Positions 24,201 through 27,200 of a stretch of 27,655 bases of DNA are shown here, piece by piece. The stretch's first letter is position 1, and each line of letters starts with the position of its first letter. The stretch is from IMG/VR virus record IMGVR_UViG_2537562192_000021, positions 1-27,655 of that record. One strand, 5' to 3'. Position numbers: made by a program. This stretch comes from a virus. Taxonomy: Duplodnaviria; Heunggongvirae; Uroviricota; Caudoviricetes.

Positions 24201-27200
24201 TAATTGCAGTGAGCTGGAATGGGAGTGTAACCGGCCATCCTTTGTTGTATCCGGTGATGACGGGAAAATCACCATATCAGAAAATGGAAAAGTAACACTG
24301 CCATCGCACCAGCACAGTGAGACGCTCATTGAATTTGCCATTGATTACCTGAAGAACAATAAAAAACAGGGGCTGATGCAGCGCATTGGTCGTTGCATGG
24401 GGTATCTGCAGGTAGCCGCTGAGATTGAAGCGCTGGCCAGTGGTGCGGACAAGGATTCAGTTGTGCGGGAGGCACTTCTTCGTGATTTTGATAATCCGCC
24501 TTTTAAAAAAGTGCCGGCTTACTGGCTTCATCCCGGACTGACTTATCTGAAAGTGCGTATTTAGTGGGCCTGGGACAGCGGCTGAATATTTAATATATCC
24601 ATGAACACAAAAATCAAATACGGCCTGTCGGCTGCCGTTCTGGCGCTGATTGCCGCAGGGGCTTCTGCGCCTGAAATCCTCGACCAGTTTCTGGATGAAA
24701 AAGAAGGCAACCACACCACGGCATACCGTGATGGCGCGGGTATCTGGACCATCTGCCGTGGAGCCACCCGGGTGGATGGTAAGCCTGTGATTCCTGGCAT
24801 GAAGCTGTCGAAGGAAAAATGCGACCGGGTTAACGCTATCGAACGGGATAAGGCGCTGGCATGGGTGGAGAAAAACATCAAAGTGCCACTGACTGAACCC
24901 CAGAAAGCGGGGATCGCGTCATTCTGTCCTTACAACATTGGCCCGGGTAAGTGTTTCCCGTCGACGTTTTATAAACGAATTAATGCAGGCGATCGCAGGG
25001 GAGCGTGTGAAGCGATTCGCTGGTGGATTAAGGACGGTGGGCGTGATTGCCGCACACGTTCAAATAACTGCTACGGACAGGTTATTCGTCGTGACCAGGA
25101 AAGCGCATTAGCTTGTTGGGGGATAGATCAGTGAGAGGAGTAACCGCGATTATTTACGCTCTGGTTATCTGCATCATCGTCTGTCTGTTATGGGCTGTTA
25201 ATCATTACCGCGATAACGCCATCACCTACAAAGCGCAGCGCGATAAAAAAGCCAGAGAGCTGGAGCTGGCAAACGCAACTATTACTGATATGCAGGTGCG
25301 CCAGCGCGATGTTGCTGCGCTCGATGCAAAATACTCGAGGGAATTAGCCGATGCGAGAGCTGAAAATGAAACTCTGCGTGCTGATGTTGCCGCTGGTCGT
25401 AAGCGCCTGCGGATCAACGCCACCTGCCACGGTACCGTGCGTGAAGCCACCAGCACCTCCGGCGTGGATAATGCAACCGGCCCCCGACTGGCAGACACCG
25501 TTACACGGGATTATTTCACCCTCAGAGAGCGGCTGATGACGATGCAGAAGCAACTGGAAGGGGCGCAGGAATATATCCGTACTCAGTGCATTAAGTAGTC
25601 TTTTTATTATCCGGAGGATATATGAAGAAATTACTGGTAACCGTAAAGCCTTTTCAGGGAACAATTCCGTTCCGTGTTTTGCAGCCTGGTCGTGTTCTTG
25701 TTGAAGGTACGTTCAGTGGTAAATGTACGCAATCATACTCCCGGGTCTTTCGGGTGGATGCCTCGAATGAAGAGCTAACCGTGGAGTGTGCTGTGAATGC
25801 CGCTAAATGCCGCAATGGTATCGGCTGCATTACAGCCAGTGTGTTGAGCGACCTTATTATCCATGGCGCGGTATTGTCGCCGTATTCCCGTATTAACAGA
25901 GACCGCAGCCCGACAGGGAGACTCCTCTGCGCGAGTGTGCGGGGATAATCAAAAACGATACACACCGGGGTTTACCGCGTTAACGGAGCGCGGCGTTGTC
26001 CCCTCATGGTCGCTGGTCCGGTGCGATGGTGGAAGAAACCGGACTACATTAAAAATGATAACCATTATCATTTTTTGCGGGTCCTCCTGGTGGGGTGGGT
26101 ATGAACACGGGGCGGGCGGCGCGGAAAAAGGCGCATTTTTTGATTTTTATGGCACCATCACCACCAGTGTAAATCATTGATATATACCATAATAAAAATT
26201 TTTAGTGTCGAAGTTGATTGTTTTTGTTCATCACTGGCGTGTATTTACATAATTTTCAGGGGAAGTTATGGATCGTGAATTAAAAAATCTGCATCTGAAT
26301 ATTTCCCAACTGGCTGCATTATCCGGTGCTCATCGACAGACTGTCGCGGCTCGGGTAAAAACATAAGCCCAGCCGGTGGTCATGAGAGTAATCTCAAACT
26401 GTACCGACTGACAGATATCCTTGCCGAGCTGATGAAAGCTCCTCTGCCTGTAGATAACGAGGAAATGGATCCTCATGCGCGTAAAGCATGGTACCAGTCA
26501 GAACGTGACCGACTGAAATTTGAGCAGGAAACCGGTCTGCTCGTGTCAGTCAGTGATGTCAGGCGGTCGTTTTCTGTCGTGGTGAAAGCGATAGTTCAGG
26601 TACTGGAAACCTGGCCTGACCGGCTGGAGAGGGACAGGGGGTGGACCGCATCACAACTGAATGAAGTACAGATTGTGTTGATGAGATCCGCGACACACTG
26701 GAAAAGGCAGTCATTGACTGTTGTGATGAGGCCGATATGTGAATCAGGTGAACGAGAGCCATAGCCGCGCATCCGATATCTGGCGCGAAGTGGCCTCGCT
26801 GTTTCGCCCACCTGGCCGGTTACCAGTAGCGGAAGCCATCAGGCGTTATATGCGGGTACCACGGGGAGCCAATACTTCCGGTCCGTGGGAGTCATCGCTG
26901 ACGCCCTATATGATTGACCCCATTAATACATTATCAGCCCGTGAATATGACGCGGTGGTGTTTGTGGGACCTGCGCGAACCGGGAAAACCGAAGGGCTGA
27001 TTGATGGCTGGATTGTGTACGGCATCATCTGTGATCCGGCGGATATGCTGGTGGTGCAGATGACCGAGACAAAGGCGCGTGAGCATTCCAGAACGCGTCT
27101 TTCCAGGACGTTTCGCCACAGTCCGGAGGTCAGTAAGCGCCTCAGCCTTCCCATAATGACAACAACGTCCACGACAAAATGTTTCTTGACGGCTCATTCC

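Follow-up and report, generated by a model that had tools for sequence, protein, structure and literature searches.

What is encoded by the 108-codon open reading frame (ORF) that lies between the lysis gene Rz and the packaging genes in the viral DNA IMGVR_UViG_2537562192_000021? This stretch of 27,655 nucleotides (nt) of caudoviricete DNA, here called the window in its full length, had been read once before, and the original prediction singled out the ORF as an unrecognised gene with a strong ribosome-binding site in an interval known to host morons such as bor and lom in lambdoid phages. The ORF is the window's copy of a catalogued, uncharacterised late gene of 74 amino acids (aa), ordinary and not new, and the locus as a whole is probably best explained by a frameshift in this copy of a late cargo gene. 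The ORF itself could be confirmed with its coordinates, ATG and TAA (Table 1), with its sense orientation within the late operon and with its position between Rz, whose stop codon (25596-25598) precedes the start by 23 nt, and a downstream small terminase gene of the DUF1441 type. The GGAGG Shine-Dalgarno (SD) sequence is likewise present and invariant across five aligned lineages; the spacer to the ATG measures 4 nt (ATAT) and not 6 nt as first stated.

The length of 108 aa is peculiar to the window and is due to one extra A. An alignment of the five lineages (A1) reads GCCGC[A]ATGG, with the bracketed A in the window alone, where all near-identical relatives carry a single A. The reading frame is shifted at codon 65, the native TGA is missed and 34 further codons are read up to the TAA at 25946-25948. 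The last 10 native residues are thereby swapped for a 44-residue out-of-frame tail containing ...NGIGCITASVLSDLIIHGAVLSPYS..., which covers the first 83 nt of a conserved, unannotated element. The native gene extends over 25622-25847 (225 nt, 74 aa). Since the native C-terminal codons (MVSAALQPVC) survive out of frame, the DNA is a family member whose encoded product is truncated and altered, and residues 65-108 are out-of-frame read-through outside the conserved gene.

The native form is widespread in Escherichia coli. A 441-nt query across the locus found at least a partial match in 2,894 of 5,426 complete E. coli genomes and covered at least 80% of its length in 1,176 of them. The top matches are 99.8% identical with one gap, and the RefSeq genomes at this level annotate a 225-nt coding sequence (e.g. 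WP_033800741.1) directly after Rz, there called 'lysis protein', as do phage records. The extra A is shared by none of the 5,426 genomes, and about 15 billion public proteins do not include the exact 108-aa sequence. The protein is listed in many records as a 74-aa hypothetical protein of E. coli Shiga toxin (Stx) and lambdoid prophages (WP_033800741.1, WP_000735655.1 and WP_013009262.1; BCI50138.1 in phage PPyecE_EH1910), with the same locus directly after Rz, the same start and the same SD. Residues 1-64 of the window product show 97-98% identity with their nearest protein clusters (P0003 and P0005) and agree fully with the translation of the corresponding locus (L004) in E. coli 2012EL-2448 (NZ_CP027586.1); what sets the window apart is the extra A at codon 65 and the replaced tail.

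The earlier statement that the protein matches nothing does not hold either. Its residues 1-65 align with positions 100-164 of the PHROG profile phrog_2571 (E 8.6e-23), and phmmer returned family matches down to E 3.5e-38. An exhaustive profile search unveiled remote stand-alone homologues of 72-81 aa with 30-40% identity, whose DNA has diverged beyond recognition. They match phrog_2571 positions 100-170 and share the pattern MKKLxVT...F.V.Q.G..L..D..SGK......Y.VDA.D..L.VEH......(I/V)(S/T)A.L, including the final strand in the 74-aa frame. This C-terminal strand, (V/I)(S/T)A.L.., is lost from the window product at codon 65, which therefore lacks a complete phrog_2571 domain. The archetype of the family (about 280 aa, e.g. 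P0060 with 280 aa) occupies the same slot between Rz and terminase; it carries additional N-terminal helical and C-terminal regions, whereas the window gene is the bare domain, cut before its last strand. Large repeat proteins that also emerged from the profile search (P0051, P0066, P0068 and P0073) were rejected as cystatin, zinc-finger or TQ-repeat proteins. Pfam (E up to 10), NCBIfam and PADLOC gave no match to the window protein, a search of PDB sequences with the family profile gave a chance match only (E 0.34), and no head, tail or terminase family was matched when homology to phage structural and packaging proteins was checked. Literature searches for the protein accessions and for phrog_2571 found nothing, and a survey of Stx-phage lysis cassettes (PMC8136144) does not discuss the gene. 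The several cysteines that had been noticed are present in the core (C35, C56 and C63) and are not kept in the remote homologues.

In its 74-aa form the gene is real, conserved and protein-coding. The ORF is kept in 84 of 85 related loci, a count to be read with the 74-aa query by which these loci were retrieved, and in the remaining locus 9 nt are deleted in frame. The window clade and the Stx2_EH2201 clade show 42 differences over 192 nt, and 21 of these fall at third positions; the ratio of non-synonymous to synonymous change (dN/dS) is about 0.3 in the frame of the gene and about 1 in the other two. Selection is weak across the 26 distinct alleles, in which 22 variant codons are synonymous (52 sites) and 45 non-synonymous (170 sites), for an omega of about 0.63. 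Changes between the two commonest clades are mostly non-synonymous (8, 4 and 2 by codon position; n=14, not significant). Two other ORFs at the locus, an antisense one at 25654-25965 and one on the + strand at 25863-26180, were discarded as they are disrupted by indels between lineages.

Structure prediction with AlphaFold2 on the family alignment yielded a confident all-beta fold for the 74-aa form, with a predicted local distance difference test (pLDDT) score of 87.9 and a predicted template modelling (pTM) score of 0.73. Strands were placed at residues 2-8, 11-21, 24-35, 39-45, 53-55 and 66-71, the last of which is formed by the native C-terminal segment. The 108-aa form reached a pLDDT of 63.8, with residues 76-102 below 50. 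Foldseek searches of BFVD and PDB gave nothing better than E 0.09. The generic beta-sandwich and carbohydrate-binding module (CBM)-like folds that were returned (CBM35/6/36, a PNGase F domain, the hemocyanin C-domain, a lambda J domain and PBSX XepA) are 3-17% identical and alike in fold class only, so that no ligand-binding residues can be transferred to the 74-aa protein. As had been stated before, there is no L-x-x-C lipobox motif at the N-terminus. Reading of the N-terminus MKKLLVTVKPFQG, five hydrophobic residues followed by Lys-Pro, revealed neither signal peptide nor lipobox, a judgement made without a dedicated signal-peptide predictor, and residues 2-8 form a core beta-strand in the model. 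The native product is predicted to be a small, soluble, cytoplasmic all-beta sandwich.

The gene also seems tied to the late operon. In CB9615, 569R3 and Stx2_EH2201, Rz ends in ATGA and overlaps the ATG of the 74-aa gene, the usual sign of translational coupling, which indicates that the gene is coupled to Rz in these relatives; in the window, the two genes lie 23 nt apart. The protein would be made from the Q-dependent late transcript in lytic growth and would stay in the cytoplasm.

The slot that the gene occupies holds optional cargo. In YYZ-2008 and 1720a-02 the slot is empty, with Rz ending in the same sequence and the same stretch following downstream. Lambda and the K-12 prophage DLP12 have bor there on the opposite strand, phage 1717 and PhiR70_1 have other genes, and the K-12 Qin prophage has neither the 74-aa gene nor the conserved element, which measures about 180 nt. 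At the junction of the segment absent from YYZ-2008 and 1720a-02, similar short sequences were seen at the Rz 3' end (...ACTCAGTGC..., 25581-25590) and at the 3' end of the gene (...GCCAGTGTG... / GCCAGTGTGTTGAGC, 25836-25850). These short flanking sequences may be a joint at which recombination brought in or removed the gene. Distant homologues occur in two places. One is the interval from Rz or the spanin genes to the terminase genes, including cases in which the preceding lysis cassette is unrelated; the other is the interval from Q to the holin gene, where they neighbour other cargo (PixA, Ail/Lom, BamE-like and GrlR-like genes). The window gene thus has the late-operon cargo location of its family.

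By the definition of Juhala et al. (2000), as relayed by PMC4104026, morons are variably present at the same site among closely related phages, carry their own promoter and terminator, through which they can be expressed from the repressed prophage, and differ in composition from their flanks. Variable presence was found here. A consensus scan, the sole means applied, detected neither a + strand promoter within 25300-25622 nor a terminator behind the gene, and composition is unremarkable, with a guanine-plus-cytosine (GC) content of 0.48 in the gene, 0.54 in Rz and 0.50 in the whole window. The position proposed for a moron, the bor slot with its optional cargo, was therefore well chosen, whereas expression and location did not bear out the comparison with bor and lom. 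bor is an opposite-strand gene with its own promoter, which encodes a lipoprotein expressed in the lysogen. bor or borD and the 74-aa gene are both optional in the same interval, from Rz to the 180-nt element. Unlike bor, the 74-aa gene lies on the sense strand, is coupled to Rz in relatives, has neither lipobox nor signal peptide and does not resemble bor in sequence. Neither a signal peptide with lipobox nor an outer-membrane beta-barrel nor a Pfam match, which would mark a Bor or Lom/Ail protein, was found. For a soluble beta-sandwich encoded on the late strand without signal peptide, roles in serum resistance or adhesion are unlikely; the 74-aa gene does not encode a lysogenic-conversion envelope protein.

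How the extra A arose can be judged from its surroundings. Compared with E. coli 2012EL-2448, positions 25487-27655 of the window contain five 1-base indels and one substitution, and every indel falls in a homopolymer (A->AA at 25814, T6->T5 at 26220, A6->A5 at 26356, GG->G at 26676 and CCC->CC at 27145). Three of the five disrupt the small and the large terminase genes. Spontaneous mutation in E. coli consists mostly of substitutions. As natural decay is expected to be rich in substitutions, a ratio of 5:1 in favour of exclusively homopolymeric indels speaks for sequencing error, and the extra A is likely an error of sequencing or assembly. A real, very recent inactivating mutation is considerably less likely. 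The same applies to the wider proposal that all these changes are real mutations; the window would then be a defective Stx prophage in decay, and the gene by now a pseudogene or variant. It is common for Stx prophages to be defective and to have broken packaging genes, length variants of the gene recur in assemblies, and selection on it is weak within the clade of Shiga-toxin-producing E. coli (STEC), yet the indel pattern would be very improbable without sequencing error. Still further down the scale stands a genuine long allele, in which the 108-aa ORF has a new C-terminal extension that is expressed and used. The shifted frame reads ...CITASVLS..., resembling the last-strand motif of the family, AlphaFold places a strand at residues 70-76, and other extended variants, ending in ...SPTGRLLCASVRG (P0001 and P0002), exist. 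Against these points have to be set the absence of the long protein and of the extra A from the proteins and genomes searched, the poorly modelled tail that consists of element sequence without a kept frame, and, within the 1.3 kilobases that follow, four more homopolymer indels by which essential genes are broken. Programmed frameshifting was rejected, there being no slippery motif and no need for a shift in the relatives. As a separate observation, the stretch with the four further deletions (26220, 26356, 26676 and 27145) looks error-prone, with both terminase genes broken by indels of the same homopolymeric kind.

A frameshifted copy of a late cargo gene also has to be weighed against other views of what the gene is. 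The bor slot and the variable presence among related phages would suit a bor- or lom-like lysogenic-conversion moron that acts at the envelope and is expressed in the lysogen. This is highly improbable in view of the sense orientation in the late operon, the overlap with the Rz stop in relatives, the missing promoter and terminator, the ordinary GC content and the lack of signal peptide, lipobox and Pfam Bor or Ail/Lom match. Hardly credible is the notion of a non-coding ORF that owes its conservation to an RNA or DNA element. It would draw on the adjacent 180 nt, which are conserved and non-coding, and on the weak selection on the ORF in the closest clades; it conflicts with frame-specific purifying selection at depth, a conserved hydrophobic periodicity in remote homologues, the confident fold and the conserved SD and ATGA coupling. 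A lysis accessory that modulates the timing of spanin, holin or endolysin is easier to imagine for a gene coupled to Rz, and remains rather unlikely: phages with the same Rz and flanks lack the gene, the protein has no membrane segment, and some homologues lie upstream of the holin gene amid the unrelated cargo named above. A role of the 74-aa protein itself in tuning lysis is doubtful to the same degree, and the gene is somewhat less likely still to be a functionless remnant in the window lineage.

Taken as a frameshifted cargo gene, the locus probably works as follows. Some lambdoid and Shiga-toxin prophages of Escherichia have a conserved 74-aa gene directly after Rz, as optional cargo in the slot that bor holds in lambda. 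Transcribed with the lysis genes in a Q-dependent manner, it would be translated from a strong ribosome-binding site of its own and often in coupling with Rz; in the window, the extra A at codon 65 carries translation into the conserved non-coding element. For the biochemical role, which no sequence or fold match names, we commit ourselves to a guess with weak support: a cytoplasmic module that binds a protein or ligand and, late in infection and together with small partner proteins, might blunt the host response.

Several hints from neighbouring genes bear on this guess. Immediately after the homologue, seven loci encode a protein of about 71 aa (phrog_4280), sometimes together with phrog_1935, and the phrog_4280 partner is missing from the window lineage. 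This indicates that the homologue and phrog_4280 form a two-gene module, which the window lineage has lost. In P0045, from another prophage, the 74-aa domain is fused to a helical module with 63% identity over 49 aa (E 7e-19) to the N-terminus of a 186-aa ORF that the window carries between holin and lysozyme; P0060, the phrog_2571 archetype, joins the domain to other modules as well. The P0045 fusion suggests a functional link between the 74-aa domain and the 186-aa ORF. The latter co-occurs in 24 of 69 loci, a figure that stands without a background rate for comparison. Genes with Acb2/Tad1-like hairpin domains lie near homologues in two remote contexts. A check for defence systems with PADLOC gave nothing for the window protein or P0003, and no match to Pfam Acb2_Tad1 was obtained. 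It is conceivable, and tentatively proposed, that the protein serves counter-defence or host conditioning as a cytoplasmic binding module late in infection.

The element into which the window ORF runs deserves attention of its own. This stretch of about 175-180 nt is more conserved than the flanking genes, and its reading frame is not kept between lineages, as a G indel near 25866 shifts the frame within it. It occurs in 149 phage records, mostly without the 74-aa gene and with different packaging modules downstream, and is restricted to Escherichia; matches in three assemblies from outside this genus look like contamination. A covariance model (R1) built from the consensus structure described below finds one full-length copy per locus, including lambda (NC_001416, 46,869-47,033, 100 bits) and DLP12 of K-12 MG1655 (579,010-579,175, 106 bits), and wherever the orientation of a copy could be told, it was that of the late operon.

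In 14 distinct versions of the element, a consensus structure of 42 base pairs can be formed with 98% of cells paired. Over 22 distinct sequences, 97% of cells pair, compared with 33-63% in slid controls, and seven pairs show compensatory changes, a number reached by 2 of 500 shuffles; in reading these values it should be borne in mind that the structure comes from the same sequences, that fitting to the model produced the second alignment and that the sequences are interrelated. The excess of G.U cells (94) over A.C cells (10) speaks for an RNA on the strand of the late transcript and against both a DNA structure and a minus-strand RNA. A search with the 4,227 covariance models of Rfam 15 gave no match at the gathering threshold in the region and no relevant one at E up to 1 within 25300-26400. 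No description of the element was found in the literature searched, including searches for borD/ybcV small RNAs (sRNAs), and a preprint on Pas-sRNA does not mention the locus. The known sRNAs of the AsxR/AgvB type were set aside, since they lie 3' of stx2B and not here. The element looks like an undescribed structured RNA. Just after it, at 26052-26080 (+), lies an AT-rich hairpin with perfect pairing (AAAAATGATAA-CCA-TTATCATTTTT) and T residues behind it, specific to phages with the DUF1441/GpA packaging module, and then a GC-rich tract (GGGGCGGGCGGCGCGG, about 26110-26125), which may belong to the cos region. In combination, and with the same caution as for the protein alone, the element might be an undescribed late-transcript RNA of lambda-like Escherichia phages (lambda, DLP12 and most Stx phages) that marks the downstream edge of the cargo slot, while the 74-aa protein and phrog_4280 might form a late module that counters the host response.

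The remaining features are compiled in Table 1. Relatives of the window annotate stxA2/stxB2 and a DUF6645 protein just upstream, and the window is an Stx2 prophage or phage. Elsewhere in the window, Rfam matches to STnc100 sRNA, C4 antisense RNA, isrK, sRNA-Xcc1 and a tRNA were recorded, the STnc100 match (20888-21096) lying 3' of the stx region.

Table 1. Features of the window and of related loci. Positions refer to the window, except for the phrog_4280 gene, where they refer to the loci named.
Feature	Position	Strand	Evidence or remark
ORF of 108 aa, ATG to TAA	25622..25948	+	sequence reading, ORF list
Shine-Dalgarno GGAGG	25613..25617	+	
Codons 1-64, conserved core of the phrog_2571 domain	25622..25813	+	PHROG match, 41 homologous protein clusters, remote homologues, dN/dS
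Extra base, AA for A; 1-base insertion with frame shift	25814..25815	+	alignment A1; pairwise comparison with L004
Native C-terminal codons, stop TGA 25845-25847, out of frame in the window	25815..25847	+	alignments A1, A2, A3
Conserved unannotated element, ~175-180 nt	25866..26044	+	covariance model R1, 215 bits here
Class II holin-like ORF	within 23695-24003		
ORF of 186 aa (phrog_1085/36381, unknown function), between holin and lysozyme	24004..24564	+	
Lysozyme	24601-25134		
Rz (i-spanin)	25131..25598	+	468-nt 'lysis protein' annotation in L004, L091
Rz1 (o-spanin lipoprotein), embedded in Rz	25351..25536	+	ORF list; lipobox LVVSAC by translation
Small terminase gene, DUF1441 type, broken by 1-base deletions at 26356 and 26676	26268..26742	+	comparison with NZ_CP027586.1
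Large terminase gene, GpA type, 5' part, broken by 1-base deletion at 27145	26739..27655	+	comparison with NZ_CP027586.1
Rfam matches elsewhere in the window	20888-21096, 10561-10644, 10670-10743, 6736-6824, 19397-19470		positions as one run
Gene of ~71 aa, phrog_4280 (unknown function), MFVxxGLKPDxDNxGWVxGWGVVRxSPWHLxGVYATK...	L090 4266-4466, L093 477-746, L100 1736-1951, L103 2133-2216, L104 449-670, L105 353-574, L106 626-838		

As originally posed, the finding carries little weight, since it concerns a frameshifted copy of an already listed hypothetical gene. The gene with its flanks is widespread all the same, being found in the roughly 1,176 complete E. coli genomes counted above, many of them with Shiga-toxin prophages, and its fold is confident. 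As the timing of its product coincides with toxin release and lysis, a defined role, be it in counter-defence or in lysis tuning, would, if true, be of modest interest to the biology of Stx phages. The two-gene module formed with phrog_4280 is a lead worth following in this respect. The more interesting lead is the neighbouring RNA-like element, which is carried by lambda itself and absent from Rfam.

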